The notes under the pieces were generated by a model that saw nothing but the letters and a program-made list of their open reading frames with translations, was not told where the DNA came from and searched no databases. Of a stretch of DNA of 64,000 bases, positions 748 to 63,469 are shown piece after piece. Source of the stretch: a virus; IMG/VR virus record IMGVR_UViG_3300009082_000017, positions 64,001 to 128,000 of that record. One strand, 5' to 3'. The position numbers and the translations under genes were made by a program. Positions within the stretch are counted from its first letter, which is position 1; each line of letters starts with the position of its first letter.

Positions 748-815
748 CCACACCAATAAAACATCTATTTCATGGCACTTAACAGATAATCATATTTAAA
801 TAAAAGGAGAAAATA

Positions 816-1439
816 ATGCACACACATGCAGAGATTTACTTGGAAAGCAACGAAAATTGGCAAGAACAGGTCGAAGATATTTTGTCACAGTATGATGCAA
901 ATTTAGAAATTCAAGAAGAAAAAGATGAAGATGGCAACCTTTATTGGTGCAACCCTAACGGAATTTTTGATTGGTATGAAATTGGTGGTAGATGGACTGG
1001 ATCACATGGCAATTATAATCCTGAAGAAGATATTAGGAATTATGAGAAGTGTAGACTTTGTGATGGTACAGGATTACGCAATGATGAAATTGGACTAAAA
1101 CACAGACAAGAAAATCCTGATTACAAATGTAACGGATGCTATCATTATAACAGAGATACCGGAGTGGATGAGCCAGGATTCTTTGGTGTCGGAATGGCCT
1201 TGAAGTGGCCTACTGATTGGTTCAATCATGAAAGTAATATTATTCCGATTGAAGAAATTGACGAAAAATTAGATTGTGGCACTATCTTTTTCAATGGTGA
1301 TTATTGGGAAAATGAAGAATGGGATTATGACAATAAAAAATTCAAACCAAACAAAGATTTTAACGGAAACGTAAAAGAATTTTTAACTAAAAATAATATT
1401 ACTACCGGCTTTTTGGTAACAGTTGATTATCACTGGTAG
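816..1439 (+). CDS. hypothetical protein with DnaJ-like CxxCxGxG zinc-finger insert
   Basis: CRLCDGTG...CNGC; DWYEIGGRW motif; AAGGAG SD; bounded by dyads 756 and 1446. Confidence 0.75.
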   Translation: MHTHAEIYLESNENWQEQVEDILSQYDANLEIQEEKDEDGNLYWCNPNGIFDWYEIGGRWTGSHGNYNPEEDIRNYEKCRLCDGTGLRNDEIGLKHRQENPDYKCNGCYHYNRDTGVDEPGFFGVGMALKWPTDWFNHESNIIPIEEIDEKLDCGTIFFNGDYWENEEWDYDNKKFKPNKDFNGNVKEFLTKNNITTGFLVTVDYHW

Positions 1440-1492
1440 TACCCCATGAAATTTCCATTTCATTAGACTATATAACAGAAGGAGACAAATAG

Positions 1493-2047
1493 ATGAGCGA
1501 AGAAATGATTTTACGAAAAGAAATGTGTGGTTCACACCTTATTCAAAGAATTGAAAAGCCTTATGGTGTTCCTAGTGATATTGACTTTTCTAACACTATA
1601 TCAGTTGATGGGTTATCAACGGAAGCAAAAACAATATTAAAAACTATTTATCGTTTTGATTATATGGGATCGGCAGAATTTGAATTTGGTGCAATCCCAA
1701 CCGCTTTTAGATTTATGGCAAAACAAGCGCACGCTAAGAACCTTGTTGCTGGAAGTGTAGGAAATGTTTATTATATTACTCCTAAACCTTATGAGCAAGA
1801 AGTAAAGGTACGCATTGAAAGACTGAGACAAGATGAATATAGTTTTAGATTAAAAGAATGGTGTGGACTAAAAGACGCTTTACTTCCAACAAAAGAATCT
1901 TTTGGCAGTAAGTCTATTGGATGGTTTGAAATTGATAATGGTTTTATGTTTTTCGTTGATAAAGAAATGTTTGAAAATAGTTGTAATTTATTTGGGATTA
2001 AAGTAAAACAATTACCCCATGAAACAGCAATTTCATTGATTTTTTAA
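1493..2047 (+). CDS. hypothetical phage protein
   Basis: 184 aa, AAGGAG SD, DYMGSAEFEFG motif; C-terminus reads through the dyad at 2019. Confidence 0.75.
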   Translation: MSEEMILRKEMCGSHLIQRIEKPYGVPSDIDFSNTISVDGLSTEAKTILKTIYRFDYMGSAEFEFGAIPTAFRFMAKQAHAKNLVAGSVGNVYYITPKPYEQEVKVRIERLRQDEYSFRLKEWCGLKDALLPTKESFGSKSIGWFEIDNGFMFFVDKEMFENSCNLFGIKVKQLPHETAISLIF

Positions 2048-2294
2048 AAGGAGATTACAATGGAAGAAAAAGGCGATTGGTCACAAACTGATATAACCAA
2101 AGTCACAGATGATACATTAGACTTATGGAAAAGAATGCTAGATAAAGCCAGAGGCGACGATCCAGATTGTAAATTTGGTCTAATTCCTTTTAGTAGATAT
2201 GAAGTTTATCAAGAATTATTACGCAGAATTTAAAACTCCCTATTGACTTTAATAAAATGTCGTGCAATAATATATATTAGAAAGGAAAATAAAA

Positions 2295-2549
2295 ATGAGA
2301 ATCAATAAGCACACAGAAAAATTAAAAGCTGGTGATAAAATTACTACTGATTTTTTTGAGGGTGAAGAAAGTGTAGTAAGAACAATTATTTGGATTGAAG
2401 ATAATGCAAGGATGGGATCAGGCAGAGAAGTATTTTTCGATGGAGGTAATGAATGTCCTTGTTGTCATAGACTTCTTGGAACACCATTATCTGAACATGT
2501 AAGAGTCGGTGGCATTGATGCGGCTTGGGCTATTGCCATGAAACAATGA
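2295..2549 (+). CDS. hypothetical protein
   Basis: SD AAAGGA; stop lies inside the dyad at 2538. Confidence 0.7.
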   Translation: MRINKHTEKLKAGDKITTDFFEGEESVVRTIIWIEDNARMGSGREVFFDGGNECPCCHRLLGTPLSEHVRVGGIDAAWAIAMKQ

Positions 2550-2571
2550 TTTCATTGAAAGGAAATGAATT

Positions 2572-2845: not shown

Positions 2846-4447
2846 ATTACTATAACGAATAAAGAAAAGGAGATAATATTATGAAACAAACTTTAGTAAA
2901 TGTTACAGTAAGACTCGTGATCAATCATGATACTGATCTTGATGAAATTATTGACAATATGGATTATGACTTTTCAAATAAATTTATCACTGGGGCGGAA
3001 ATTGTAGATACTGAAATTTTAGACTATGAAGTTATTAATCCAGAAGAAGAGGAATAACATGAAAAAATATAGTAAAAAAGACACTATTATTATTACAGTG
3101 GATCAGGGATTAATTACAGAATTATTTTATGCCCCCAAAAGCATTAAGAATGTATTACAAATTGATTATAATGAAATTATGGAAAATCCAGAGGCTTATT
3201 GCCCCTCTTGCGAAGAAAGAGTAAAATGGACTGACGATTTGATTTGTCCTAATTGTGGATTTGATGCGATGGAACTTGAAAACAACTTAAAGTAACAACC
3301 ACATGAAATACAATTTTCATGGCAATGAAAGGACATAAATAAAATGAGAAGAAGATTGCCCAAAAACACTAAAATTGTTATTAGAAAAACTCAAATTAGG
3401 AGTTCTCAATTATGTCACAAATGTAATTCTAATATTGAAAAATTAAGCGAAGTGATCCTAGTCAGTAATGGTCGTGGTCAAAATAGAAAGTATTATCATC
3501 TTAAGTGTGCAGAATTAGAAGGGATTAAAAATGACAGAGAATGAAGAAGATAAATTAATGGTGGTATTAGAACATTTTTTATCGTTGCATGAAGCCGATG
3601 AAATTTACAATGCAATATTTGATATAACAGTTGACGAAAAACAGTTGAGTGCGATTCTGGATAGTTATAAAGAACCATGAAATTCTACTTTCATTGGAAA
3701 ACAAAAAGGAGATAATAATGGAACTAAAAATTAACGCTGATAGATGGAATAATCGTGATATGGAAAGCGTAACTGGAATTTATATTCGTGCTATGACCCC
3801 TGACGGAAAATGGGATAACGCCGATCTTGCTCAACTTGATAGGGATTCTATTATTGAGTGGACTAAAACCAGAGAAAATGGCGCATTGAACACTTTACTA
3901 ATTTTGCTCGGATACGATCAAGTAACAAACTAAACCCATGAAATGTAACTTTCATTAGAAAGGAGAATAAAATGAAATTTTTAAACAAATACGAAATAGA
4001 ACACGCTGGCAATTACATTTATTGGAGACCAGATTGGATAAAAGGAAGTCCAGTTTATGTTACTGGTCATCAAGCGAATTTTGATGTGCATTTTGACAAA
4101 AATACTTATCCTACTTTATTAAGAGATGTTCCTGAAGATGCAATATTTATGAGATTACATTCTTCTAATGTTTTCCCTGAACTATAACAGAAAGGACACT
4201 CAACAATGACCTGCAAACAAAAGAATCTACTCGAACACTACTTTTATCAAATACTCACTCGTCAAGGTATTGCTCCAAAGTTTTCTTTTATCCATAGCAA
4301 ATATAAAGACGATGGTTCAGAACTTATTCAAACCATTGTAACAAAAGATAATAAACCTGTGGCAGTATTTGATAGGGTTTATATTGACTCAAAAGGTTAT
4401 GTGCTTAATTATGAAATGATGTTGGCTTAACAGAAAGGACTATAACA

Positions 4448-4816: not shown

Positions 4817-5363
4817 CAGAAAGGGAAAAATAAAATGAGATGTAAACATCCAACCAAAGAAATTTTTAGTAGATGGGTAGATATGAATGGGCGTTCAATC
4901 AACTTCAGCGCCGGTATAGGAGAAGTCAAGAAAGAATATACTTGCCTAGCTTGTGGTAAAGTCGTAAGAAAGCCCAAATCAGAATAACAGTCAACGAAAT
5001 ACCACTTTCATGTGGTTAACAGAAAAGGAGAATAGAATGACAACTTATACAGTTTCGTTTGTAAAAGATGCTTATGTAACAGTAGAAGCAGATAGTGTGG
5101 AAGAGGCGGAAGAATTGGCAACGAAAGAAGTCAATGATCGTGGAGTTGATTGTGAAAGTAAATGGCAATTAGATGAAGTTATTGATGAGTAACACTCAAT
5201 AAAATTTATATTTCATGGTGAAGTAAACCCAAACATCTATTATAAATAGATCAGGGTCTAGAGATTGCGATTTACAATCAGTTTGAATAAATTCAAACAA
5301 AGGAGTGAAATTGCTCCAATAAATTATATCATTCATGGGAAAAATAAAAAGAAAGGAGGTCAA

Positions 5364-7142: not shown

Positions 7143-7440
7143 AGGAGGGGTGGTTCACGGTTTGAACCCGAATAATTACTAAGTATTAATAACTACTAAG
7201 TAGTTAAATAAATACTAATAAATAATCAATCAAAATCAAAAAGGCAAAAACCAAGAGCGCCTTTTTGATTTATGAACACAAATTTTTAATGCTTTTAATT
7301 TAAAGGAGTAAACAGTTTACAACCATGAAACTATTGTTTCATTGAAAATAATTTTAGATTAATTTAAGGTAATGTTCTATTGTAATTAAAAAATTAGGAC
7401 TGTATACTATTAGTATAAATAAATAAGAAAGGAATAAAAA

Positions 7441-8022: not shown

Positions 8023-8339
8023 TTCACCCATGAAAGTTCTATTTCATGGTGTTATAAGAAAGGATTAAAATGAAAATCTTAAAAATTCAAGATATTACAC
8101 CCTTTCGTGGTAAAGAACCTAATGATATGGATTTATTAAATTGTTTGGTAGAATATAACGATGGAGTTACTGGAAATTCATATATGTATCGTGCTAAATA
8201 CGATAAACTTATTTTTCAAGCAGACCTAATTAAAAAATATAATATCACGGAATATGAATTAAATGTGTTTACAGATTTGATCAGAGATGAAATTGATACT
8301 GAACATTTTTATAATGAAACTTAAAGAATAGGAGAAAAA

Positions 8340-8741: not shown

Positions 8742-8783
8742 TACCCATGAATTTACCGTTTCATTAGAAAAGGAGAAAAAGAT

Positions 8784-8981: not shown

Positions 8982-9250
8982 TAAAGAGGTTGAAAAAATG
9001 AGCAAATATGAATATTTAATAGGGGAAACTGTGTCTTGGAAGGAACATATTGATACAGGTGGAGGCACATATAATTATTGCGAAGGAAAAGTTTTAAACG
9101 TAATTGGTAAAAATGTATTTTTTGAATCAGATGTTAAGTGGATTCCTTATATGCACGAATTAAAAATTATTGAAAAGACGACACAAATAACCCCATGAAA
9201 TTGCTCTTTTATTGAAAACATTAGAATTCTTAAAATTTCTAAAAAAACTA

Positions 9251-9279: not shown

Positions 9280-10400
9280 ATTGCTAGAAAAGGAGATGAA
9301 ATATGACAGATAAAATTAAAACATTAAAATTGTGGTCAAGTGAGTCATATAGTGTAGAATGGCATGAAAACACTATTGATATGGGTGATTATAACCCCGA
9401 AGAACAAGTAAATGTTTTATTGGGGCTAATATATAATCAATTACCAGGAGATGTTTTTGAGGCATTAGCAAAAAGATTGGGCATTACAGAGGAACGTTTA
9501 GCAGATGTTTGTCCATAATTCCCATGAAATAAGGTTTTTCATTGGGTAGTAAATAAAATTTTAAATATACAAAGAAGGAGATAAAATGGAAAAAAGTTAC
9601 GGTTCGGGTTATAATTGGGTTGTCACGGATAATGGGAAAGTCGCTCGTTTCGCAGTAGGCGATCATTATGCTGGTGGTTTGTGGGATTTACAAAAAGAAG
9701 GAACACAAGACTCTTTAGAGAATAAAAGTACTCGTGCGTATCTTTTTGAAGCAATTTATAGTATTTCGCCTAGAGAGTATTTTGAATTAAAAGAAGATGT
9801 TGGAAAAGATTTTATAGAACTATTAGAAAAACAAATATCAAATGATTTAAAAAATGAAAAATAATCCCCATGAAATGAGACATTCATGGGAATAAAGAAA
9901 GGATAATGAAATGGACAAAAAAGAATTGAAAGAATATTTACGCAATAACTTAGGCGTGACAGTTTTTATCAATGATGGCGATCTTCAAGTGGATATTACT
10001 TTAGAGGATGAAGTTATTGCCAGCGCAGGAACTTGTATGCCGTTTGAAAATGCTCGTTATGATGATTATGGTAATCGAATTTAACCCCATAAAACAACGC
10101 TTTCATGTGGAAAGGATAAAATGAAAATAAAAGGAAAGCAAATAGTTGAAGTAGAAATTACTGAAAGAGAATTGGCTTATGCTCTTATGGACATAGTGCG
10201 TAAAAAATTGAAACTTGATAATAGTTTTGATGATGCCGGTTGTGATTGGGTTACCGATAAAGACAAAACATATATTGGAAATAATAAATGGTTAATATCA
10301 AATAATCCTGAAATAGCAAGCATGATCAACACAGTAAATTTATTGATCTATAATCAAACTTTGGGAATATAATATCCAACCTTAAAAAATCTCAAAACGC

Positions 10401-10846: not shown

Positions 10847-11334
10847 TTCCTAATAAAACGTTCATTTCATGTAGTAGAAAGGTAGGATAAAATGGAACTA
10901 ATCAAATCTAGATTAAATTTTGCTATAACACTAGAAGAATTAAAAGTTCTAGTAAAATTATTGGGCAGTATGAGTAGATCAGATGCCACCAAATTAGGTC
11001 TGACTCATGAAGAAGATGACTTAATTCTAAATATTTTTAGAAAGATTGATGAAATACTTATAAAAACACGATGAAATCACTATTTTATTAGAATAAAAGG
11101 AGAAAATATGTTAATTTTTATGGTTTCTGTAAATATTGTTGTTGGATTTGCAATTTTATTAGCATTTTATGGTATGATGAAGGCATGGATTGACACTGAC
11201 AATACGTTAGGATTGGTAATATTGAAAATCATTGGGTCAGTTTGTTGCCTTGCAATAATTCCTTGTTACATTAGTTTATGGTTGGCTACACCGCTATAAA
11301 ATTTCCATGAAATTCGCATTTCGTTGAGAATTTT

Positions 11335-12325: not shown

Positions 12326-13090
12326 TAAATAAAAAAGGAGATTAATATGAAAATTACAGAATTGATCGAGAAGTTAGAACAAATTGCCGTTGATAATGGT
12401 GATATGGAAGTAGTATTACCACAGTCTTGTACCGATGAAATTACTTTGGAAGAAAGAGCATGGAACGCAGATATTAGTGAAGTAGAAACTTCTGGTACTG
12501 GTGCTGATAAAGTAACATTAATCTATTAAATCAAAAGGAGAATATAAAAATGAAAAACTTAAAACTCACACAGGATTCACAACGTAAGTGGAACGTCATT
12601 AACACAATCACTGGTTTGGTTGTGACTGGTCACTTCACCAATAAGTCTCTTGCTCTGGACGCTATGAAGAATTATAAAGAAGATGTTGTAACAGCAACCA
12701 AAAAGTCGATCACGATGTCACGCAAAGACCAGATCCGTCATGCTCGTGCAAAGGCACAGGGTATTAGTTATGCTGACTATGTTGCAAAATATGTGGTTGG
12801 AGGGTAAGATGAAAATCAATTGGAAAGCGATTTTTGGGCGTTTACTAATTTTGGTAGTTTTAGGGACTTTAACCTTTTTGTCATTTTCCCTTGGATGGGA
12901 TCTTTATGCCAAAGCATTAAGTACAGTTTTTACGGCGATTTTCCTTATTGCCATTGGCTTTGAACTGATGTTTTCATGAAATTAGTATTTCGTGGGATTG
13001 GGCAAATTAAAATTTACATTATAGGAGATTAAATGCTATTTTTCTGGATTGTGATATTGATTTTGTTTGCGGGTTGTAAGTAATTGGGTA

Positions 13091-13772: not shown

Positions 13773-14263
13773 TTATGAATTTACAAGATTTTTTTAGTAA
13801 AACAAATAAAGTTATTGATCTTGAAAATTCACATTATCGTTTTCAAGAAATTAGACCTAGAATAATTTGTCGGGATGGTGTTTCATTATCTGTTCAAGGA
13901 AGCGAAACACATTATTGCCAACCGCGCATTAATGATTATGCCAATTATTATGAAGTAGAAGTTGGATATCCATCAATAAGACCACCTGAAACATGGAAAC
14001 AATATTTTGATGGTGAATGGCAACAAGTAGGAATTATTGGATGGATTAAAAGAGTTTGGAAAGAAAGGTCTAACATTTTCTATTCCTTGAAAAATTTGAA
14101 GGGATTAGGCAAGTGGAAGATTAAAGATATTCTTTCTTTGGAAGATAATGCAACAAGGAGTGTTTATGGTTATATTCTTAGTAGTTTAGTTGAAGATTTT
14201 ATTAATACTCATGGTGGAATAGATGAAGAAGAAACTTTTAAAAAATCTACCATGAAAGAGTAG
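13763..14263 (+). CDS. conserved phage hypothetical protein
   Basis: CRDGVSLSVQ..HYCQPR..VEVGYPS; stop inside dyad at 14252. Confidence 0.7.
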   Translation: MGIIMNLQDFFSKTNKVIDLENSHYRFQEIRPRIICRDGVSLSVQGSETHYCQPRINDYANYYEVEVGYPSIRPPETWKQYFDGEWQQVGIIGWIKRVWKERSNIFYSLKNLKGLGKWKIKDILSLEDNATRSVYGYILSSLVEDFINTHGGIDEEETFKKSTMKE

Positions 14264-14533
14264 ATTCATGTGGTTGGTGGAAAGGACAGTTATGAAAAAA
14301 TTTATATCAACACAGGGCGACTTAACAGTCGAATTAAGTCAGAACACAATCTTTATTGAAGGCACATATATTTTCAATGGTGATATTCATAACCTTCGTG
14401 TTTGGTTGGATGGTGTGGACAGCTTACTTAACAGTAATAGAAATATAGATGCCGATGAAGATATGTGGTTGCCTGAAGATATTTATGGTACTTCGGATAA
14501 TGTGGAATAATAACCCAATGAAACGAGGATTTT

Positions 14534-14917
14534 ATGGGAATGTTTGATAGTGTTGGTTTAGAATGTAATTTGCCAGAAAATATTGAACCATATAGAAAAG
14601 GTTGGTGGCAGACAAAAAGCCTTGGTAGACATATGGATCAATATTATATTGACAATGATCATATTTATAAAGAATTGTGTCATTATGAAGATGTCCCAGA
14701 GCAAGAAAGAACATTCTATGGAGAACCGGAGTGGGATAAAGATGATTTTTATAAATTAATAGGATCACAAAAACGAATAGTAGATAAAACTGTTGTGGTT
14801 GACTATACTGGCGAAATAGAATGCCATGCATATGTTGAAGAAAAACAATTAATGGTTCGATTATTATTTACTTTTGTAAACGGAAATTTATTGAAAAAAG
14901 AAGTTTTGACACCATAA
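14534..14917 (+). CDS. hypothetical protein
   Basis: MGMFD start lies in the right arm of dyad 14518; TAA stop lies in the left arm of dyad 14914. Confidence 0.75.
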   Translation: MGMFDSVGLECNLPENIEPYRKGWWQTKSLGRHMDQYYIDNDHIYKELCHYEDVPEQERTFYGEPEWDKDDFYKLIGSQKRIVDKTVVVDYTGEIECHAYVEEKQLMVRLLFTFVNGNLLKKEVLTP

Positions 14918-15204
14918 AATAATGGTTTCATGGAGAAAAAATGAAAACAAAAATGTATGAAGTATTTTTTGAAATTATTGGAAAGCATTTAGATGCTCAT
15001 AAATTTCTGAACGCTAATGAAGATTGGCTTCTAGAAATGTATAAGGATTTGTCTAATAATATTCCCAATTCTACAATCAAAGATATTAAACGACTTGACC
15101 TATATAACATGGGTCACATTGACTATCATCATAAATTCGCTCTGCATTGTGATGAATTATATCAGAAAAACACCCCATAAATTATGTATTTCATGGGAAA
15201 TTAC

Positions 15205-18791: not shown

Positions 18792-18827
18792 TTTCAATGA
18801 ATGGAACATTTCATGTGAAATTGGCAC

Positions 18828-19503: not shown

Positions 19504-19550
19504 TCCCCATGAAAAACTTATTTCATGTGGTATAAAAGAGAGGATAATGA

Positions 19551-19955: not shown

Positions 19956-20013
19956 CTACCACATGAAATCTGGCTTTCATGGTGTAGTATAAATATAATA
20001 AAAGGAGAATGAA

Positions 20014-20487: not shown

Positions 20488-21388
20488 CTCCATGAAACTG
20501 CGCTTTCATGGGAAGATCAGAAAGGATTGATATGAAATCTACAAAAGATATTTCTCAAAAGTTAAAAGAAGCTGAATTGCTTCTTGAAAAATTTAATTTA
20601 GAATATATGGACAAATATGATTATGGCGACCCAGAATGTGGCGAAGAAGAAGTGTCGCTAAAGAAGGAAATAGAAATTTTAAAATGGGTTCTTGGTAAGT
20701 AATACGGGGTAATGAAAGGACGATTTCATGGGAAAACAAGCAGTAATTTATTTCAAAAATGGAACTAAAGATTGGGTTGATCCGATTGACGATGAATCTA
20801 GAGATATATTTTATGGAGATTCTGTTATAATTGTTACCAATGGAGCGAATAATAAATATGTTTATGATAAGTTGTCAGTTGAAAAGATTGAATTTATTGA
20901 ATTGGATAATATAGAATGACAAAAATGATTTGTACTTGTAAAGAATTTACTGAAAATATGTCGAAATTAAATGACTCGACAATGTATGCGTTCCTTCATG
21001 GACATCAACTTGGAGCAGGGTTTGTATATTTTAGATTTTGTCCATGGTGTAGCAAAAAATTATTTGATGACGATATTAATACTTGGTCTGGTTCTGGCGA
21101 AGATAAACAAGGTGAACTAAATTATTAATTGAGAAAGGAATAAAAATGGTACAAAATTCAAATTTGGGATTAAAGATTGATGGTCTCGAAGGTTGCCCTT
21201 GGTGTGGCAGTCATGTTTTGAAACATTATGAGAACAATCAATTTAAGGCATTACAATGTCAATATTGTTTAGCTATTGGAGGAATATTGCCACATATTCA
21301 TTTTGCAGATAGTGAATATTTAGATTCCAGTAGGTGGCAATTAGTATATTCAAGATGGAATAAAAGATTACAATAAAATAACAATTTC

Positions 21389-21823: not shown

Positions 21824-22182
21824 TACCTAATGAAATGTAGGTTTCATGGTAATAAGAAAGGAGAAGTTCTATGCCAGATAACGAATCATTAAAATATTCT
21901 GGTCTTTCAAATACAGATATAAATATGATGATTGCCAAGTTGTTAAAACTAGATTTTACTAGATTTAATGATGTTGATAATCCAGACTCATGTGGCGATT
22001 GGGCGTATACTGGGTCAATTTTAGACGAAGTTATGTCTAAACATCCTATTGAAATTCATAATGTAGAAGCAGGATTTTTAATTTATGTGGATTGTTGCAG
22101 AGAGTTTTCAGGGGAAGATTTAAAAAGATTGTTATGTGAAGTGTGGTTGTCAGATTATGATTAATGAGATTTATATTCCATC

Positions 22183-22597: not shown

Positions 22598-22796
22598 AGA
22601 TAAAAGAGTACGATGTTTAAACTGTTATCATGAGTTTTGGATGGATGCGAAATTGCCTAAAAAAATGTCGTGGTGTCCTCGTTGCAACAGCTTAAATATT
22701 GAGTTCGCCAAAGAATATGGCAAACAAGTAATTGAGTTAAGAGAATATGGAGTCTAATAAAATGGGGATTTCATGGAATTTTAGAAGGAGTAAGTA

Positions 22797-23582
22797 TTGA
22801 AACTATATTATAAAGACGAATATTGCACTTTACTTCAAGGTGATTGTCTTGAAGGCATGCAGAAAATGGCAGAAAAGGGTTTGAAATTTGATGCAATCAT
22901 AACAGACCTTCCCTATGGAACTACTGCTTGTAAATGGGATACAATTATTCCTTTTGATAAAATGTGGGAATGTTTGAATAATTTAAGAAAAGATAATTCA
23001 CCAATTATTTTGTTTGGAAGCGAGCCATTTAGTAGCTTGTTGAGATGTAGTAATCTGAAGGAATTCAAGTATGATTGGATTTGGAGGAAAAATACAGGGA
23101 CAGGGTTTGCAACGGCAAAATATCAACCATTAAAATATCATGAAATTATATCAATATTTTCAATTGGCAAAATAAAATATAACCCCATCCCAACTGAAAG
23201 ATTTAGCGAAGCAAGTAAAAGGGTATGTAAAAATCCAGTAAGAGGTGGCGGGAAAACAACAAGCAACCATGTTCCAATGAATATTGTGAAAGTCCAATAT
23301 GATAGCGAAACAAAAACGCCAGAAAGCGTTTTAGAATTTAAAAGTGTTCCTAATGCTGGAGGAAATAAATTGCATCCAACGCAGAAACCAATTGAACTAT
23401 TAGAGTATCTTATAAAAACATATACAAATGAAGGTGATATAATTTTAGATTTTACTTGTGGATCTGGAACTACTTTATTAGCAAGTAAAAAATTAAATCG
23501 TAAATGTTATGGTGTTGAATTAGAAAAGAAATATTGTGAAGTTACCAAAAATAGATTAATTGAGTTAGATAATACCCCATGA
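22797..23582 (+). CDS. N4-cytosine/N6-adenine DNA methyltransferase (beta class)
   Basis: TDLPY, HPTQKP, LDFTCGSGTT. Confidence 0.92.
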   Translation: MKLYYKDEYCTLLQGDCLEGMQKMAEKGLKFDAIITDLPYGTTACKWDTIIPFDKMWECLNNLRKDNSPIILFGSEPFSSLLRCSNLKEFKYDWIWRKNTGTGFATAKYQPLKYHEIISIFSIGKIKYNPIPTERFSEASKRVCKNPVRGGGKTTSNHVPMNIVKVQYDSETKTPESVLEFKSVPNAGGNKLHPTQKPIELLEYLIKTYTNEGDIILDFTCGSGTTLLASKKLNRKCYGVELEKKYCEVTKNRLIELDNTP

Positions 23583-23887
23583 AACTGTTGTTTCATTGAA
23601 AATTTAAAGGAGAGAAAATGAAATACTACAAATATGATTACGGTGCGATTGGCGCTTATTGCTTTGGATTTTCAAATTTGATTGAATCTGATTCTCTTGG
23701 AAATGCAATAAATGAAATTACAAAGAAATCAGAGAGGTTATTTAATCATTATGAGTATGGTGGTTTTGGTGAAGCATCTAGATTCGAAATTAATGAAATT
23801 TCTGAAAGATTATATAACGAGTTGTCAGAAGGAAATAAAAGATTTACCCAATGAAATGTCCAATTCATGTGGTAGAAAGGTTTAGGC

Positions 23888-26001: not shown

Positions 26002-26255
26002 TATGAAAGGCAAATTCAGGAAAGACCATGACGATCACAACTATTTTATTCCAGAAATCTCTCTAGAAGCTTTTGACGATTATCAGACTAGGCTTGGATT
26101 ACTTGATTTTTATGGAGATGAGTGGGAGGCTTTGAATGATGAGTTTTTAGAAAGATTTGAGAAACTTGTTTTGAAGTACCCGCCCAATCATTATTTAATT
26201 GAAATGTCATTACCATGAAATGCCAGTTTTATTAGAATGACGGAAAGGATAAATT

Positions 26256-36991: not shown

Positions 36992-37549
36992 TACACCATG
37001 AAACACAGATTTCATGAACAAATAAAGGAGTAAAATGTTAACAAATATTGTAGGAGACATACATAGACATATGGCATATTTCGGAACAGTTCCGAAATTA
37101 GTAATTGGCAAATTTACTTTAGAGACCATAAGAAAAGAATTTGGCAACTTAATTATTGATGCTGATTTAGATAATCAAAGAGGACAAACTATTGCCGGAT
37201 GTGAATTTGAAGAAGCCGATTTTTGGTGGGGATATTATTTGAAAAAGTTTATATCATGAAACTTGTATTTCATTAGGGAAGAAAGGATAATTTATGATAG
37301 ATGCGATTATTGCGATTGTAGTAGGATTGTTGCTTTTATATTTTGGCATATCATCAATAATATTGTTTATAAAAAATGTTAATAAAAATGATGGAATATG
37401 GATTATAGCGAGTGCATTAATTTGTTCCATTGGATTATTTTTATTTGGTGGTGGAATTTTACAAATAATAAAAATTATTTTACCATGAAACTAGAATTTC
37501 ATGGTGTATTACAAATAAGATAATATTAGTATAGTGTAAGGAGATAAAT

Positions 37550-38584: not shown

Positions 38585-38621
38585 AAGTGTCATTTCATTG
38601 GAAATTGATATTGATTTACTC

Positions 38622-38673: not shown

Positions 38674-39189
38674 ATGGCCTATAGTAATCCTAATAATATT
38701 ATTACAAAAGGAAAAGAATTGTCTCATTCATCAGAGAATAAAATTGAAGCTATTAATGCTCTTGAAAAAGCATTAAGCACATTAAATGAAACAATAAGAA
38801 GTGCTTGTGATCTTGGTATTTTCCCAAAAGTGGAAGTTAGGCAACAGATGTCCTTTTATGAATCTAATCCCGATTCTATTATGGGAATTATTCATTATCT
38901 TTCAGCAGATTCCGTATTTTTAGAATATTTAGAAATGTATGATAATGCTCAAGGTTTAGTTGGTATGGCACTTCCTCATGGCGAAACCGCAAAGCATAGA
39001 CTTTCAATATATGAAAGCTCATATAATGAAAGAAAAGAATTTTTAGAAAAATCTGAATTAGAAGATAAAAAAGATCAATTATTAAAGTTGGAAGATTGGT
39101 GGACAAATACAAAAGATACTTTTGAATCCAGAATGGAAAAAACAGAAAAAGATATTATTAAAGAGTCTTGTGTAGAAGTTACCCCATGA
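38674..39189 (+). CDS. hypothetical protein
   Basis: 171 aa; bounded by dyads 38581 and 39186. Confidence 0.7.
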   Translation: MAYSNPNNIITKGKELSHSSENKIEAINALEKALSTLNETIRSACDLGIFPKVEVRQQMSFYESNPDSIMGIIHYLSADSVFLEYLEMYDNAQGLVGMALPHGETAKHRLSIYESSYNERKEFLEKSELEDKKDQLLKLEDWWTNTKDTFESRMEKTEKDIIKESCVEVTP

Positions 39190-39235
39190 AAGATTTGTTT
39201 CATGGTATAAAAATTAGATAAGAAGGAGATTAAAC

Positions 39236-39469: not shown

Positions 39470-40300
39470 TTGAAAGAATTACAACCGGCAATCAAATGGT
39501 CAGGAAGTAAACGTCCTATTGCAAAAGAAATTGTAGAATCATTTCCAGATAATATTGAAACATATTATGAACCTTTTTGTGGCGGATGTTCTGTACTGTA
39601 TTATTTATTGAATAGCAATAAACTTGGTGCAAAACGATATGTTTGTTCAGATATCAATAATGATTTAATAGATTTGTGGAATACAATTAAATCTAATCCA
39701 AGTCAAGTTATTAATAATTATTCGAGAATGTGGAATGAGTTACAAGTTTTAAGTATTGCAGATCGCAGACAATATTTCTACGATGTTCGAAGTAGATTCA
39801 ATAAAGAAAAATCACCTTATGACTTTATGTTTATTATGAGAACTACAACCAATGGTATGCCTAGATATAATAAATTAGGAGAATTTAATAATTCTTTTCA
39901 TATTACAAGAGATGGTATTAATCCAAAAGAATTTACAACTACGATTGATAAATGGTCTAGTTTATTAAATAATTATGAAGTAGAATTTGTTTGTCAAGAT
40001 TATATTAATATTGTTTCAGATAGCGAAGATGTGATTTATTTAGACCCGCCTTATGCTGGGACAAAAGGAATGTATTATGGAGTAATTGATTATAATAAAT
40101 TATGGGAATGGGTGAAGATTCAAAAAGGATTTGTCGCACTAAGTTTTGATGGAAGAACCACAAGCACAGAATATTCTGATTTAGTTCCAAAGGATATTTT
40201 TAGTAATCATAAATTGATTTGTTCTGGTAATTCTTCATTCAGAAGGACTATCGGAAAATCAAGATCAGAGTATGTTTATGAAAGTTTATATACCCAATGA
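39470..40300 (+). CDS. Dam-like (D12 class) N6-adenine DNA methyltransferase
   Basis: KWSGSK, EPFCGG, SDIN, YLDPPY; probable TTG start at 39470. Confidence 0.92.
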   Translation: MKELQPAIKWSGSKRPIAKEIVESFPDNIETYYEPFCGGCSVLYYLLNSNKLGAKRYVCSDINNDLIDLWNTIKSNPSQVINNYSRMWNELQVLSIADRRQYFYDVRSRFNKEKSPYDFMFIMRTTTNGMPRYNKLGEFNNSFHITRDGINPKEFTTTIDKWSSLLNNYEVEFVCQDYINIVSDSEDVIYLDPPYAGTKGMYYGVIDYNKLWEWVKIQKGFVALSFDGRTTSTEYSDLVPKDIFSNHKLICSGNSSFRRTIGKSRSEYVYESLYTQ

Positions 40301-41167
40301 AAGAACTATTTCATGGAGAATAAACATTTGAAAACTAAAAATTTGGTATATTATTTATTTGGGGCAAATGATCTAGTTTCTTTATGGAAGTTGTTTCTTG
40401 CCACTATCTCAATAAAATATTTTTTGCCTAATAGACGATCCAAAAAAATGTTAAGAGAAAAGATAAAATATCTTAAAATATTAGAAAACATAAATAAGGA
40501 GAATAAAAATGAGTAAATATCTTGTAAATATTATGGTTCCTGTAACTTTTCAAATTAAAATTGAAGCTGAAAATGAAGATGAAGCGTGGGATATTGCAGA
40601 AAAAGAAGGCTATGATCGTATTGATTTTTCTAGTGATGCAATTGATGACGATAAGGGTGGCAGTGAAGTATATGATGTAATGCTTGATAGTGATTAACCC
40701 AATGAAAGGACTCTTTCATGGGAGAAAGGACAAATTATGAATAAAAAACAATGGTTTTTGAATATTGAAGGAAGCAAACAAAAGTGGGATATCCCAATCG
40801 AGATCAATGAAAAATATCTTTCTGACTACACATCAGATAATCTCAAAATTCATTATCAATACATCCCTATAAAATTTTCTTTATCTAAAAAATATGTATA
40901 TGGCATTGATGTTAGAGGCAAGTATAAGCAATGGGGACTCCCTGTTGAGGCTACACCTAAAGAAGTAGAAGCATGGAGAGAAGATGGTATAGAGATTAAT
41001 CGAATTATAAATTCTATCCCATCTTGGTGGGTAGATATGGGATTCTCTGTTAGGGTTTGGTGCTTTTGGCAGGATGTGTTTAATTTTAATAATCCGTTTG
41101 TAAATAAGTAATTATCACAAAACAAACTAATCGTATTATTAATTACATTATAGGAGGATTTTTTCTA

Positions 41168-41962: not shown

Positions 41963-42136
41963 ATTGTTTATACCACTATATGTGATGGTATAAAAAGTAA
42001 CGACACACTATATGATGTATATATAATTCAACGGAAAATTGTGAATGGCATATGATTATATATCCAAGTGTAGGATAATTACTTCATGAAATATAACCTT
42101 CATGGAAACTAGTTCAAAATTGGTATCAATTTACCC

Positions 42137-42165: not shown

Positions 42166-42909
42166 TGTATAGTCTTGGTACGCGGATATACTTTTGGAGA
42201 TGAAGGAGATGGGGTCGCGGTTGGGATTGCTGGGCGACTAACCAAAAGAAATTTAGCATAAGATAGAAGCAAAATAAAGTGTATGAATATGCTTCAAAAA
42301 ATCTTGGTGAGATTAATTATATAATAATATGTATAAGATTCCTAGAAATAAACTCACAAAATACTAGGATTAAAAAAACTTATAAAGGAGAAAAACAAAA
42401 TTGAAAGATTATAGAAAAACACATAGTAAAATTCGAATCCCCGCAAAACAAAATAATAACATTATTGTTTCACCTCTATCTACCTCCAAAGAAGAAACTT
42501 CTGTCGAAGGCTTAGAACCTAAAATCATTCCCGATAACGGCAAACGTTTTACAGTTAAATCCAATCAATGGGTTATGGAGAAGTTTCAAAACCAAGACAC
42601 TCCTACTAGAAAAATTATTGATTTAGGTAAAGATTTGACCTGGCAGGAAGCCAAGAAAATGAAGAAAGAAAATAAGAATTCGTGGATTATTTAATTCCCC
42701 ATAAAACGAATATTTCATGTGATAAGAGAGACGTAAATGTGTTTTAAAAAGAAAAATAATAAATATATGAAATGCCCATTATGTAGAGGGAAAGGTTATA
42801 CGGGAATTATAATACATGAAAAGTGTCCAAGGTGTGAAGGCGATAAAAAAGTATTAAAATCAGAAGACGAATCAAAAACTTGTGGAACTTGTGGTGGAAG
42901 ATTAGATTG

Positions 42910-53787: not shown

Positions 53788-54619
53788 AACAATTATATTC
53801 TCTCGCAATCGTCCTCTTCAATTAACCTTATGCCTTAAAACATTATTAAATCATTGTACGGACATTTTACAACAATCAAACATTACAGTTTTATACAGAA
53901 ATGATGAGGAATATCGGCAGTCTTTTGACAATTTAATGTTGGAATTTCCCCAAATATCGTTCAAAAAGGAGGAAAATTTCAAAAAAGACCTGCTTTCTTT
54001 GCTACCACATGAAAGCAACATTTCATGGGGTAAAAATGAAGGTTTTGTCACTTTTGTTGTCGATGATCAGATTTTCACCGAAGATTTTTCAATGAAAGAA
54101 GTTATTTCAACACTTGTTGAAAATCAGGATTGTATAGGGTTTAGTTTACGTCTTGGCAAAAATTGTGTACGATGTTTCCCTTATGATTGTGAGCAAGCAA
54201 TTCCAAAGACAGAAAAAGTTTCAAAGAATGTTGTAAAATATAATTGGCAAGAAGCAGAGTATGACTTCAATTATTGTTTAGAGTTATCTGCAAGCGTTTA
54301 CAGGGTAAACGACCTTATAGAGATGTTTGAGATTTGCGATTATGACTCACCCAACCACCTCGAATCAATTATGAGTTCGTGTTTTTATAAGGACAAACCA
54401 AACCTTTTAATGTTTGAAAAATCGGCATCCTTCAGTTATCCGATGAATAAGGTTCAAACATCACACCCAAATAGGAGTGGAGATTTCAATCCTGACACTC
54501 TTAGATTAATTTATGAAAAGGGTGGAAGATTTGAAAATAAGCAATTTGATGGTTATATTAGTAATGGAGCACATGAGATTCCAGAAAGTATAAATTTGGT
54601 GGACACATATGGCAAATGA
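53774..54619 (+). CDS. GT-A fold putative glycosyltransferase containing an in-frame dyad site
   Basis: FSRNRPLQL, FVVDD, FSLRLG; dyad at 54005-54030. Confidence 0.7.
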   Translation: MKKCKTIIFSRNRPLQLTLCLKTLLNHCTDILQQSNITVLYRNDEEYRQSFDNLMLEFPQISFKKEENFKKDLLSLLPHESNISWGKNEGFVTFVVDDQIFTEDFSMKEVISTLVENQDCIGFSLRLGKNCVRCFPYDCEQAIPKTEKVSKNVVKYNWQEAEYDFNYCLELSASVYRVNDLIEMFEICDYDSPNHLESIMSSCFYKDKPNLLMFEKSASFSYPMNKVQTSHPNRSGDFNPDTLRLIYEKGGRFENKQFDGYISNGAHEIPESINLVDTYGK

Positions 54620-59375: not shown

Positions 59376-61021
59376 AAGTAGCAAATATATTATTTGCTCA
59401 AATTATTTAAGGAGAAAATATGAACAACGAATATCAAGACTGGCGATCCATTCTCAATCCACCTACAAAAGATGGTGAGATTTGGATTTATGCTTATATT
59501 TGGGACGACGGATGGTGTATCATTAGAAAATATTATTACATGTCTGAGGGATTCAAAAAAGGTACGGCAAGATGGATGCCCATTATAGTTCCTCAACCAC
59601 CTACCGATGTAGATTTTAGTTTATATGAAACCCCATAAAACGACTGTTTCATGCGCAAAAAAAGGAAAATAAATGAAAAAATCTAAAAAAGCAAAATTAG
59701 TAATCACAGAAAAACAATATACTAAAAAAGAATGTCAACTTACTTGCCCACATTGTCATACTGAATTTCATTATATGAATGGATTTGATGAAAATATTTT
59801 ATTATACAAATGTACTCAATGTGGAAATTCTATTAGACTATATGATTAAGGATAAAATAAAATGCCCCTAGATAGAGACCTAGAAGATACTCGTGACGAA
59901 GAATCATATCAAAACTATTCTGATGAAAAAGAAGAAGCATTTTGGGATGAGGTTGATTATGAATATGATAGAATGATGGATGATAAAATGGATAAAGAAA
60001 ATTGGTGAAAAATATGACTGATCAACCGGCTGATAGTTATTGTAAAGGATGTAAATTTTTGAAATTAATTTATGAATTGGATGACAGGCAATATTATTTT
60101 GGATGTGAAAGCAAAATGACTTGTGATAAAATTAAAGAAAGTGAAGAAAACAAAAATGGCAGAGAAAACTAACCCTATCTATAAAATTTGTACTTGTTGC
60201 CAAACCCCATTCCACTATACTAAAAAATGGAATGACAAAATTCTCGAACAAGAAGCCATCAAACGATATGGTGATACTGTGGTGAAGCAAGAGGGTGTTG
60301 AAATTTGTAAGAAGTGTTGGGATGGGTTGGAGAAACCGGAAGGAAATAAAAATGATTGATGCTGAAAAATTAAGAATTATTACTAAAGAAGGTAGTATTA
60401 AAAAAGAAAAAACAATTTTGGAAAAAATCAATGATTTTATTGAATATGTAGAAAAAGAAATAAAATATAAAGCGTCAAATGGATTTTATTCTGCAAAAAT
60501 TGATCCTATTAATTTTGATAAAAATTTAATAGACACAAAAATAATCAATGAAATTAGAAAAAAACTAGAAAATTTTGGCTATAAAGTTGAAATGGATTAT
60601 ATTAGTGATGATATTTATATTAGTTGGTATAATTCATGAAACCGGTATTTCATGTGGTAAAAAGGATAAAAAATGACAAAAAATAAATGTATATATGAAA
60701 AATGGGGTGTATATTTTGCTCAGGGATGTACGGATCAACATATATCAGAGCACACTTGTAGTGATTGGTGCATATGCCCAAAATGCGGAAAAGAAATTGA
60801 ATTTTATGTTGAGCCAGAAGAGTACAGAGAAAAACAACCAGAAATTTATGAGGATGTAACTAGTGAAAAATGGTTCGCTGAAATAGTTTTTGAAGATGGA
60901 GAGCGCATTAAAGCTATTGGGAATTCTAAAATGGATGTTACTTTGAGATGGAATAGACTGCAAAGAGAATTATTATAACCCCACGAAAGAACCATTTCAT
61001 GAACTTGATTAAATTGGTATC

Positions 61022-61050
61022 TTGACAAGTACATCAAAGTATGATAAACT
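61022..61050 (+). promoter_or_regulatory. sigma70-type promoter
   Basis: TTGACA-17 bp-TAAACT with TG extension. Confidence 0.8.
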
Positions 61051-61592
61051 TATTAAAATTGAATTTACATTAAGGAGAAAATATTATGAGTAGCAATAAA
61101 GGTATGAAAAATTTAGATATTGAAAGTATGAAAGGCGATATTAATAGTGACGAGAATACAACAAATGCAATAGACGACTTTGAACCAACCGACGCAGAAT
61201 TACAAGAAATGATGAAAGAACTCCACATCGAAGAAGAAGCAGAAACCAAGAATAAAATTTTAGAAGACTGGTCGGAAGTGACTTGTATTTCTTGCTTAAA
61301 GCCAGTAGACTTAATGAAGGCAGTTTTCATTGATGAAGCACCTTACCATAAACATTGTGCAGAAGAAGAGTTGCGATATGAAGACTAGTATTACACAAAA
61401 CGAATACGAATTACTTACTTTTTTAAAATCGCAACAAGATCAATTGGAACGTATGTCTAACCGTATGTATTATTATGCAAAGAAACTCTTAGAATTAGAA
61501 GATGACAACTGGCTCACAGATTACTTTAATGATACTATTGGTGTTACGGCGTTTTTGAATCAAGTTGGTATTGATATTGATACGAAAAACCC

Positions 61593-61621
61593 TTGACAGA
61601 TAGCGAATAATGTAGTAAACT
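61593..61621 (+). promoter_or_regulatory. sigma70-type promoter of the tyrosine recombinase
   Basis: TTGACA-17 bp-TAAACT, followed by AAGGAGG. Confidence 0.8.
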
Positions 61622-61646
61622 TATCTTATAGAAAAGGAGGCATCAC

Positions 61647-62597
61647 ATGGTTACTGAAAAAAATAAAAAAGAACTCAAAATAATTGAGAAAAAAGAATTA
61701 GATAAATTCTTGCATCGCAAGTCTATTAAGTCTGAGCATACTAGGAAGTCATACAAAAATTGCATTGGACAATTGTTTGATCATTATAATATTGAAACGA
61801 TAGAAGATTATCAAAAACTCACATTGTCTAATTTCGAAGATTATCTTAATTCTTTACCAATCAAAGATGCCTCGTATAATCAACACCTTCGCTCTCTAAA
61901 GGTTTTCTCGTCTTGGTTAAAGAAGCATGATAAAATTCAAGAAGATATCCTCCAACCAATTAAATTGACTAAGGTAAACGCAGTTACTGGCGATAAAGAA
62001 TATGATAAGAAAAGACGAGCGAAAGAAAAGTTATATCTTACAGATAATGAAATTCAAAAAATGATTGCTGTGTCAAAAAATATAAATTCTAAATTAGCTA
62101 TTGCCCTTATGGGGTATATGGGACTTCGCAGAGAAGAACTTGTTGGTTTGACTATCACAGATGTTCATGGAGATTTCTTAGGGATTCCAGGGAAAGGCGG
62201 TACATACGAAGAAAGAAAAATGCCTCCTGCTGTAAAGTTTTTGGTAAATGAATATTTGAAAACCAGAAATAATAATTCTGAATATCTTATCGTTTCAAAA
62301 GTTGGGCAACATCAAATTACAAATACCAATTCTATTTATGAAAGGATCAAATCTGCCGGAAGAAAAGCTGGAATTGATGCCGAAAAAATGAAATTAGTTA
62401 CCCCACATACAATGAGACGAAGTACTGCTTGTAATGCTGTACTTAGGGGTGTTCCAAGTACTGTAGTCAAAGAGATGCTTAGGCATCAACGACAAGTTAC
62501 AACTGATATCTATTTGGAAGCGTTAAAAGGATCTGAGGCAGTTGATGCAGCTTTTGATTCACAACCAATGCCCGATATGTCAGTTTTGATGGTATAG
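61647..62597 (+). CDS. XerC/XerD-like tyrosine recombinase
   Basis: SAM-like N-domain (SEHTRKSY...LRSLKVFSSWL); catalytic GLRREE (R), GKGG (K), HTMRR (HxxR), LRH, TDIY (Y); 316 aa, no arm-binding domain. Confidence 0.93.
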   Translation: MVTEKNKKELKIIEKKELDKFLHRKSIKSEHTRKSYKNCIGQLFDHYNIETIEDYQKLTLSNFEDYLNSLPIKDASYNQHLRSLKVFSSWLKKHDKIQEDILQPIKLTKVNAVTGDKEYDKKRRAKEKLYLTDNEIQKMIAVSKNINSKLAIALMGYMGLRREELVGLTITDVHGDFLGIPGKGGTYEERKMPPAVKFLVNEYLKTRNNNSEYLIVSKVGQHQITNTNSIYERIKSAGRKAGIDAEKMKLVTPHTMRRSTACNAVLRGVPSTVVKEMLRHQRQVTTDIYLEALKGSEAVDAAFDSQPMPDMSVLMV

Positions 62598-63469
62598 GAG
62601 AATAACATGGAAATCGAATTATCTAAACTAGAATGGGAAAGATTTTTAACCTACCATGAAGAAAAATATGGTGAGTATGGATGGTATCCAAATTTAACCG
62701 GAGTAAACGTAGTAGATAGAAATACTGGTAAGTTGGTTGGATTTCGTCAAAATATTCCAGAGCGATGTTTTATTTTGGAAGAATGGTTAGTGGGGACACC
62801 ATGGGAAAAATTTGTAAGTGTAACCACGGTTACTAATTAAAAGGATAAAAAATGAATATTTTTAATATGTTGATAATTCTGTTCCTTGTGTTAATGTTTT
62901 TTATTAGTTTGACTATTGATTCAAAATATTATAATAAATCGACAGGGGAGTTGCCATAATGACACATGTTACGGTTCATCAACTTACAGCAAGAAATAGT
63001 GAGAAAGTTTTCTTAAATGTCGATAATGATGTTTATGGATGTGTTAGTGTTTGGGGATCTTGTTATCAAAGACGAACATTTTTAATTCAAAAAGATTGTG
63101 ATTTTTATCTTATGCAATTTGAAAATGATGAGTATTATAAAGAATGGCAAGAAAGCGAATCTGGTAAATTTTGGAAAGATGCAAGAATAACAGAAATTTT
63201 ACCAATTATTAAAGATGATTATTACACCATGAAATAGAGATTTCATTCGGTTGAAGAAAGATAAATTATGAGTAAACCTATTATTACAGAAATTAGTGAC
63301 GAAGATGGTCTTTATGAAATTAGAGAAGATTATTTGGGTAAAGAAATTATTCCTTGTAAAGACGTAGAAAAATGGGGGAATAATAGTTTTTTTGGAAATA
63401 AATTGAATGGATTTATGTCTGGCCATTTTATAGTGGATGGTAGAGAAACTTGTTTCTTTGCTGTAAAAT

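Follow-up and report, generated by a model that had tools for sequence, protein, structure and literature searches.

Dyad sites with once-only 6-bp centres at the gene junctions of a 160-kb virus: candidate crossover sites for centre-matched exchange between relatives

The gene junctions of a virus contig, here called G0 (IMGVR_UViG_3300009082_000017; 160,042 bp, 31% G+C, completeness 100% by IMG/VR rating), carry a family of short dyad sites, each made of two inverted arms that are alike from site to site and of a 6-bp centre that differs at every site. The stretch analysed, hereafter the window, is the 64,000 nt corresponding to bases 64,001-128,000 of this contig, and its genes are nearly all small and carried on the + strand. 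In a close relative of this virus, many of these centres are kept, letter for letter and in the same order, where the genes between them have been replaced. We give about even credence to the reading that these sites are crossover sites of the dif/lox type, in which the centre chooses the partner, and that they serve a recombinase-mediated, centre-matched exchange between co-infecting relatives.

The consensus of the sites is CCCCATGAAA-N6-TTTCATGGGG, i.e., 26 bp with arms of about 10 bp each. With up to 2 mismatches allowed, the window contains 119 strand matches to the motif CATGAAA-N6-TTTCAT, where shuffled sequence leads one to expect 11.9. When both 7-bp arms are scored, 56 sites are found in the window at ≤2 mismatches (64 at ≤3) and 92 sites at ≤2 mismatches in the whole contig, where they are concentrated in the accessory parts. 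In the logo of these 92 sites, the information lies at positions -3..6 and 13..22, which are mirror images of each other, i.e., two inverted arms. No conserved -10 or -35 element is seen beyond the arms in this logo, and an extended -10 promoter 3' of the right arm was dropped as a candidate for want of a conserved -10. The distance between the arms is fixed: 92 sites of G0 have it at 6 bp, against 0-12 at other spacings, and the rule also holds in the relatives G1, G2 and G011 described below, hence in four genomes. Matches at spacing 7 are mostly register shifts of 6-bp sites, and the single true 7-bp centre stands at window 9523. Moreover, 88% of the CCATGAAA octamers of G0 fall within full sites.

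The two halves of the site also vary in a symmetric way. Half-site variants of the type [C/A]AT[G/A]AAA are common as singles and equally frequent on either arm, and doubly weak sites are depleted: in three genomes pooled, A-T is found at positions 3/16 in 1 case vs ~9 expected and at 0/19 in 15 vs ~25 (the sites being defined with the tested pair masked, and the expectation taken from the marginals). That one weak half is tolerated and two are not is the pattern expected of proteins binding cooperatively to duplex DNA. The borders of the centre follow a dyad-symmetric rule as well, according to which the base after GAAA is not A on either strand. Of the 92 sites of the genome, 2 have A as the first centre base and 6 have T as the last, which bears out an earlier note on this DNA that had reported both as rare. 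One arm consensus serves both sides, without distinct XerC and XerD arms or modules of alternating C/D orientation. The observed set, i.e., a protein-type dyad, a fixed 6-bp spacing, a symmetric border rule, the centres and Xer-like enzymes (see below), is what a dif/lox-type site predicts.

The relative that allows the centres to be compared, G1 (IMGVR_UViG_3300029288_000086, from IMG/VR), is an incomplete contig of 143,090 bp with 88 dyad sites. It is syntenic with G0, with a nucleotide identity of at most 93.5%, and of 64-86% in the structural genes. G1 is without a counterpart of G0 76,995-103,184 (i.e., window 12,995-39,184), and the window sites located there are not comparable. The earlier note had proposed that spacers conserved at syntenic sites beside different cargo would support slot-specific exchange, and against this one close relative such spacers are found. 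Indeed, 43 of the 92 centres of G0 recur exactly in G1, against 4.7 expected and a maximum of 13 in 3000 shuffles; 42 of the 43 are collinear, and the 43 make up about two thirds of the 65 comparable G0 sites. The sites of the window are listed here in window coordinates and without strand, each range being the 7+6+7 core, with the centre at start+7..start+12:

755..774, dyad site, same centre in G1, collinear
1445..1464, dyad site, same centre in G1, collinear
2018..2037, dyad site, centre shared with G1, collinear, both flanks unrelated
2537..2556, dyad site, centre also in G1
3302..3321, dyad site, centre in G0 only
3676..3695, dyad site, centre also in G1
3937..3956, dyad site, centre in G0 only
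4993..5012, dyad site, centre also in G1
5198..5217, dyad site, centre also in G1, TnpB-like gene next
7324..7343, dyad site, collinear G1 site differs at 2/6 centre letters
8029..8048, dyad site, centre also in G1
8746..8765, dyad site, centre also in G1 and G2
9194..9213, dyad site, centre also in G2 but not in G1
9523..9543, dyad site, the only 7-bp centre
9869..9888, dyad site, centre also in G1
10088..10107, dyad site, one centre letter different in G1
10852..10871, dyad site, centre also in G1 and G2, homology to G1 on the left flank but not on the right
11070..11089, degenerate dyad site with 3 arm mismatches, centre also in G1
11306..11325, dyad site, centre in G0 only, followed by tRNA-Arg
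12975..12994, dyad site, centre shared with G1, there at the very contig end
13293..13312, dyad site, not comparable with G1
14251..14270, dyad site, not comparable with G1
14517..14536, dyad site, not comparable with G1, right-arm ATG is the start of the next gene
14913..14932, dyad site, not comparable with G1
15176..15195, dyad site, not comparable with G1
18796..18815, dyad site, not comparable with G1
19508..19527, dyad site, not comparable with G1
19962..19981, dyad site, not comparable with G1
20491..20510, dyad site, not comparable with G1
20711..20730, dyad site, not comparable with G1
21829..21848, dyad site, not comparable with G1
22756..22775, dyad site, not comparable with G1
23578..23597, dyad site, not comparable with G1
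23850..23869, dyad site, not comparable with G1
26214..26233, dyad site, not comparable with G1
26684..26703, dyad site, not comparable with G1
26913..26932, dyad site, not comparable with G1
27114..27133, dyad site, not comparable with G1
28079..28098, dyad site, not comparable with G1, centre is a ribosome-binding site and right-arm ATG a start codon
31316..31335, dyad site, not comparable with G1
31897..31916, dyad site, not comparable with G1
32346..32365, dyad site, not comparable with G1
35356..35375, dyad site, not comparable with G1, sigma-70-like promoter begins 9 nt 3'
36997..37016, dyad site, not comparable with G1
37255..37274, dyad site, not comparable with G1
37484..37503, dyad site, not comparable with G1
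38580..38599, dyad site, not comparable with G1
39185..39204, dyad site, centre shared with G1, there at the very contig start
39420..39439, dyad site, centre also in G1 between unrelated flanks
40296..40315, dyad site, centre also in G1 between unrelated flanks
40701..40720, dyad site, centre also in G1 between unrelated flanks
42085..42104, dyad site, one centre letter different in G1
42700..42719, dyad site, one centre letter different in G1
54008..54027, dyad site, centre also in G1, homology on both flanks
59634..59653, dyad site, centre also in G1 between unrelated flanks
60635..60654, dyad site, centre also in G1 between unrelated flanks
60982..61001, dyad site, centre also in G1 between unrelated flanks
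63228..63247, dyad site, centre also in G1, where the site is more degenerate

Between consecutive shared centres, the gene content differs widely: by BLASTP, 25/40 intervals have no common gene, 15/40 have some and 0/40 have identical content. In these 25 intervals, modules have been replaced between matched spacers of related replicons, as in the Acinetobacter modules discussed below. Homology within 300 nt is found on neither flank at 19/40 shared sites and on one side only at 12/40. The ungapped island of identity extending out from the centre has a median of 26 bp and is ≤40 bp in 33/40; variable arm positions at shared centres are only 70-85% identical between the two genomes, and the right-hand flank shows a weak excess identity for 15-20 nt. 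The centres themselves diverge by 1.5-1.9%, as estimated from one-letter vs zero-letter differences (4-5 vs 43) among collinear sites, a ratio free of ascertainment bias, against at least 6.5% in the best-conserved neighbouring DNA. At a divergence of 6.5-9%, 15-18 one-letter cases would be expected (P<=7e-4). The centres are the best-conserved letters in a neighbourhood that is otherwise replaced.

Both ends of the G1 contig (positions 1-25 and 143,066-143,090) lie at most 6 nt from a dyad site common with G0, corresponding to the window sites 39185 (contig start) and 12975 (contig end). About 26 kb of G0 between these two sites are missing or unassembled in G1. This suggests that the assembly graph branched at the end sites of G1, as expected where the adjoining cargo differs within the sample. 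A second relative, G2 (55,798 bp and 26 dyad sites; IMG/VR), has 5/26 centres in common with G0 (1.35 expected); 4 of these are also found in G1, and the flanks are again unrelated. An IMG/VR scan for three specific centres returned mostly chance matches in AT-rich contigs, plus the distant relative G011 (IMGVR_UViG_3300025000_000144, loci L148-L150), which possesses 54 sites in 51 kb, all with distinct centres and with arms shifted to AAT[A/G]AAA. In this genome, a half of the ATGAAA type is paired with one of the ATAAAA type in 20/27 sites, in either order and above independence. Such mixed half-sites would fit two different recombinase subunits, as in XerC/XerD.

Within G0, no two centres are alike. 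The earlier note had seen no duplicate among the spacers it read by eye, which are located at window 755, 1445, 2018, 2537, 3302, 3676, 3937 ... 60635, 60982, 63228, and we find no identical pair, either in the window or in the genome. Its caveat that all-different spacers could arise by chance is justified for the window alone, where the probability of no duplicate among 56 is 0.39 under a null that keeps the composition of each spacer column. At the scale of the genome, 0 collisions are observed vs 4.98 expected when both orientations are counted (P=0.007), i.e., 0 vs 2.4 for direct duplicates (P=0.09) and 0 vs 2.6 for reverse-complement duplicates. Pairs of centres one letter apart are also fewer than expected genome-wide (26 vs 36, P=0.046). 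The avoidance of dyad symmetry inside the centre is stronger than uniqueness, and the earlier note had not listed this property. In G0, 9 centres are near their own reverse complement vs 19.2 expected (P=0.003). The same depletion is found among the 158 distinct centres of three genomes (18 within two letters vs 32.7, P=0.001), none of which equals its own reverse complement (3.9 expected, P=0.02) and in which the first and last letters are complementary in 40 cases vs 57.5 expected (P=0.0007). Since the arms are symmetric, an asymmetric centre is the sole source of direction for the site. In loxP and FRT, likewise, it is spacer asymmetry that gives direction to sites with symmetric arms.

The sites have a constant position relative to the genes. 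The stop codon of the upstream gene adjoins each of them, mostly at -13 to +11 nt along the direction of transcription, and this placement is also found at the minus-strand structural genes. In many cases the stop is a TGA within the left arm (the upstream stop in ~20 sites genome-wide) or a TAA that immediately precedes CCC. The next start codon is less strictly placed, 8 to ~300 nt away, and a sigma-70-like promoter, where present, stands 3' of the site. Hence, with the site placed at the upstream stop, the unit to its right brings its own leader and ribosome-binding site. Such promoters were noted at window 29328, 35382, 42133, 53089, 57648 and 61589, several of them just 3' of a dyad site and one preceding the recombinase gene. 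The packing is extreme at window 28079-28098, where the centre is the ribosome-binding site and the right-arm ATG the next start codon, and likewise at window 14517-14536, where the right-arm ATG starts the next gene, and 20711-20730. Ahead of the ribosome-binding site, the leaders that follow the dyad sites repeatedly contain the word TAACAG (e.g., window 775-800, 1470-1480 and 13318-13325), and the weak similarity of the right-hand flanks is partly due to this recurrence.

The virus also encodes candidate enzymes, listed here in window coordinates unless G0 is indicated:

61647..62597, + strand, Xer-like tyrosine recombinase of 316 aa, intact (PF00589, 3.5e-21), candidate enzyme for the sites
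G0 15909-16943, - strand, second Xer-like tyrosine recombinase of 344 aa, intact (PF00589), 24% identical to the first
G0 17015-17482, - strand, RuvC-family resolvase adjoining the second recombinase in the tail-gene region (locus L001)

The 316-aa recombinase is located within the site array and is without an arm-binding domain. Among solved structures, XerA and XerD are closest to it, and among NCBIfam models XerA, XerC and XerD, with scores that are all below the equivalog cut-offs (125 bits vs 220 for XerA). The integron-integrase model gives 40.8 bits vs a cut-off of 265 bits, and IntI4 matches only weakly among the sequences of solved structures (E 3.5e-4). Aligned to XerA, the protein shows R (GLRREEL), HxxR (HTMRR), H and Y (IY) motifs. 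G1 has an intact homologue, 76% identical, and was the only related locus found with this protein in IMG/VR; 22 metagenomic homologues were found at 46-80% identity on contigs of up to 165 kb, among which P0008, P0013 and P0014 are on contigs of 48-165 kb. Among GenBank phages, tblastn with the same protein found distant Firmicutes-phage relatives only (<=27% identity), and a search of metagenome and genome contigs with an alignment of the two recombinases returned distant integrases only. The locus of the second recombinase is kept in G1 and in the fragment G006, and a dyad site lies in the 70-nt gap between this gene and that of RuvC. No serine recombinase was found in the genome.

These elements can be assembled into a mechanism. 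One or both of the phage's own Xer-like tyrosine recombinases would bind the two inverted arms of ~10 bp, the 6-bp centre would be the overlap region in which the strands are exchanged, and the centres of the two partners would have to match. With arms alike everywhere, and with each centre asymmetric and present once per genome, productive recombination would be confined to the same junction of two co-infecting relatives. Two such events would replace whatever lies between two junctions and leave the gene order unchanged, and the swapped unit would carry its own leader and ribosome-binding site. Different junctions of one genome would not recombine with each other, hence no deletions or inversions. 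We place just short of even credence in the more complete formulation, i.e., a natural and genome-wide recombinase-mediated cassette exchange (RMCE) with a self-encoded Xer-like enzyme and ~90 mutually orthogonal sites, whose centres would act as position labels and let accessory genes be traded slot by slot without scrambling the genome.

On the other side, several observations weigh against centre-matched exchange. G1 is the sole close relative in which the centres could be compared, and the uniqueness statistics are modest (P about 0.01) and come from one independent genome. With G011, centres in the same orientation are shared at about chance level (4 vs 2.6 expected for G0, 5 vs 2.65 for G1), and reverse-complement matches to G1 are nominally raised (7 vs 2.3 expected, P=0.009). 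Thus, the centres, stable among close relatives, turn over on longer time scales. A 207-aa gene at window 816-1439 has 91% nucleotide identity in G1, where it stands one slot upstream, between different centres; at least one exchange has therefore ignored the centre. At window 755, conservation of the leader's first 27 nt follows the site and not the gene downstream, and at window 1445 it runs through the next start codon plus 8 nt. These two junctions, which lie beside the sites, are easier to explain by a nearby homology-driven exchange. Among sites recognised as orthologous only from their homologous flanks, the centre is identical in 8, differs at 2/6 letters in 3 and at 3/6 in 1, and two of the three pairs differing at 2/6 are in the vertically inherited structural module. 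Differences in the arms show no dependence on flank homology (2.6 vs 2.8 per 12 nt). Finally, each recombinase may be nothing more than an integrase or a dimer resolvase. The proposal of slot-specific exchange made in the earlier note survives in part: the same centres are found beside different cargo in G1, and the displaced gene, the differing centres and the chance-level sharing with G011 speak against a strict slot address. The idea that arms travel with their own cargo was dropped, arm differences being the same whether the flank is homologous or not.

The main rival is homology-driven exchange, in which the sites would be conserved 26-bp linker islands for homology-dependent recombination, as in the Botstein linker model and the promoter-early stem-loops (PeSLs) of T4-type phages, the dyad being otherwise used, e.g., for regulator binding, and the recombinases unrelated. 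We judge such linker islands unlikely. They account for exchange points that are off centre (27 nt into a leader, or just past a start codon), for the gene found between non-matching centres, for arm variants that do not follow flank homology and for the 15-20 nt of weak excess identity on the right-hand flank, and a modular shuffling by PeSLs is documented in T4-type phages (PMC2839356, PMC4122927). Nevertheless, 26 bp is at the lower limit for homologous exchange, and linker islands do not predict the fixed 6-bp spacing, the avoidance of palindromes, the not-A rule or the avoidance of reverse-complement duplicates. PeSLs also recombine within one genome, giving deletions and mini-circles, which the centres here seem to prevent, and the dyad sites have no promoter and no terminator. 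Homology-driven exchange, then, explains the off-centre junctions better and the centre statistics worse, and on balance we doubt that it is the answer.

The remaining alternatives, i.e., a regulator site, pure chance and an RNA hairpin, fit less well than both centre-matched exchange and this rival. We find it improbable that the sites are operator-like, bound at gene ends by a dimeric phage DNA-binding protein (a repressor of the roadblock or stoperator type, or a nucleoid organiser), with centres kept by a recent shared backbone. The symmetric half-site degeneracy and the depletion of doubly weak sites agree with such a role, as does the density of sites in the early/accessory region, with a single one in a 15-kb run that resembles a biosynthetic operon. 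Mycobacteriophage stoperators provide a precedent for dozens of intergenic repressor sites. However, a protein-binding dyad as a rule conserves its spacer less than any other part, whereas here the spacer is the most conserved (~1.5-1.9% divergence vs 15-30% non-identity at the variable arm positions and at least 6.5% in the best-conserved neighbouring DNA). A recent backbone common to G0 and G1 is not evident, because no DNA segment exceeds 93.5% identity, and asymmetric centres present once per genome are left without explanation.

It is highly improbable that the centres differ by chance and have no role, any 6 letters being suitable and the conservation in G1 reflecting plain descent. The 56 collision-free draws of the window (P=0.39), the genome-wide direct duplicates taken alone (P=0.09) and the chance-level sharing with the distant relative G011 are all compatible with chance. 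Against it stand the avoidance of direct plus reverse-complement duplicates (P=0.007), the asymmetry of the centres (P=0.001), the 43 exact matches vs 4.7, and a one-/zero-letter ratio incompatible with neutral drift at the surrounding divergence.

Least probable of the four are RNA hairpins that would terminate, process or stabilise transcripts at gene 3' ends, with a loop read by some factor: in their favour, the sites lie -13 to +11 nt from the upstream stop on whichever strand codes, and a 6-nt loop would also be kept open by the depleted complementarity at the two ends of the centre, but compensatory double changes are depleted and not enriched, the coding strand has A.C mismatches as often as G.U pairs, 70/92 sites have a true mismatch in the 7-bp core (mean minimum free energy -4.7 kcal/mol), no T-tract follows (the next 10 nt contain 2.5 T vs a background of 3.2, with ≥6 T within 10 nt after the site at 3/92 sites), the key pair of G011 is non-Watson-Crick in 20/27 sites (11 of them A.C), no Rfam family matches at the sites (Rfam 15, gathering score; one tRNA is the only match in the window), and ~90 different loops cannot each have a reader. 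The depleted compensatory changes, the 70/92 mismatched stems and the missing T-tract thus argue that the sites are not RNA hairpins or terminators.

Centre-matched exchange has its nearest natural counterpart in the dif modules of Acinetobacter, in which recombination is limited to pdif sites whose 6-bp spacers are identical or nearly so, and a single module can take the place of another between matching spacers (PMC13141974). Those modules, carried by Rep_3 plasmids and recognised by XerC/XerD, similarly have short inverted arms, a 6-bp spacer and accessory genes as cargo. Unlike the 160-kb phage with its ~90 sites, these small plasmids possess 4-10 sites, with distinct XerC and XerD arms and alternating C/D modules in place of one arm consensus, and they borrow the recombinase of the host, whereas the present replicon encodes its own candidate recombinase(s). 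In addition, pdif spacers recur within a plasmid, leading to inversions and deletions, while the centres here are unique in both orientations.

In engineered lox/FRT cassette exchange, the arms are identical, an asymmetric spacer must match, and a cassette flanked by two different spacers is exchanged and not excised. The identical arms and the asymmetric centre are common to both, although RMCE was designed in the laboratory and uses 8-bp spacers with two or three orthogonal sites, against what would be a natural system of ~90 orthogonal sites with 6-bp centres. T4-type PeSL cassettes, which mediate modular shuffling (PMC2839356, PMC4122927), are also short repeated intergenic motifs of hyperplastic regions, located at swap points of unrelated genes. 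They combine a promoter with a working terminator hairpin, are alike within a genome and lead to deletions and mini-circles by homologous recombination, whereas the dyad sites have unique centres and no promoter, stable stem or T-tract, i.e., not the sigma-70 promoter plus terminator of a PeSL.

Integrons resemble the array through one site at the 3' end of small, mostly promoterless genes, co-oriented in an array and associated with a tyrosine recombinase. Their attC sites differ in being 57-141 bp long and in acting as single-strand hairpins with extrahelical bases, with a single attI and cassettes moving as circles; the dyad sites, with 26 bp and no selection for folding, are not of this class. 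Moreover, the insertion of a circle would duplicate a centre, and a duplicate is never seen, which sets this array apart from integron cassette movement. The single-recombinase systems XerA/dif of archaea, XerH/difH and XerS/difSL share a stand-alone Xer-type enzyme, dyad arms and a short central region. They differ in resolving chromosome dimers at one site per replicon, and the recombinase scores obtained here are far below the equivalog cut-offs. No description of a comparable virus system was found in the literature searched. The dif modules of small Acinetobacter plasmids and engineered heterospecific lox/FRT exchange already embody the principle; the apparent novelty is a virus that combines ~90 orthogonal sites with a single arm consensus and its own enzyme(s).

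The window contains other features of interest, given here in window coordinates:

5265-6575, 33399-34598 and 58078-59253, TnpB-like genes (OrfB_IS605 and Cas12f1-like TNB domain; phrog_506)
11335-11411, tRNA-Arg (anticodon TCT), starting 10 nt after the dyad site 11306
16050-17510, nicotinamide phosphoribosyltransferase (E 3e-195 to phrog_448)
24441-25580, ATP-dependent DNA ligase, among the cassettes
35656-36645, radical-SAM protein, among the cassettes
37550-38584, DNA methyltransferase, among the cassettes

Two of the three TnpB-like genes are ~70-75% identical over 300-440 nt. The Y1 HUH transposase TnpA (PF01797) has no match in the genome, and repetitive extragenic palindromic (REP) elements mobilised by RAYT or an IS200-IS605 TnpA were rejected as a candidate, the TnpB-like genes being present alone. 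From 42,900 to 57,600, the window holds a 15-kb run of overlapping longer genes with a sole dyad site at 54008. This run, which is partly kept in G1 and resembles an operon for sugar or DNA modification, has among its products an aminotransferase, radical-SAM proteins and a glycosyltransferase.

As for the kinship of the virus, megablast of window 1-20,000 against GenBank phages gave no match, and tblastn with the DNA polymerase III alpha homologue against the same phages gave distant Firmicutes-phage relatives only (<=33% identity), so that a kinship to SPbeta was not confirmed by this search. The sequencing runs listed for it comprise two DNA runs, a freshwater sediment metagenome that is the probable source and a groundwater metagenome, and no RNA run. 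When contigs of these runs are compared with window 1-20,000, those from groundwater present many partial matches and many joints, with short sides of 20-35 nt at ≥85% likeness; the listing shows 12 of 589 loose ends, the data are contigs and not reads, and no conclusion was drawn from them.

Exchange at gene boundaries in phages has been debated since the modular theory, with conserved linkers and site-specific events on one side and random illegitimate recombination followed by selection on the other. If centre-matched exchange is true, this single small recombinase would come with dozens of naturally orthogonal 6-bp centres, useful for multiplex genome engineering. It would also offer a concrete and testable example of the linker/site-specific view, with ~90 gene junctions labelled, and viruses would possess a dedicated mechanism for mosaicism at gene boundaries.

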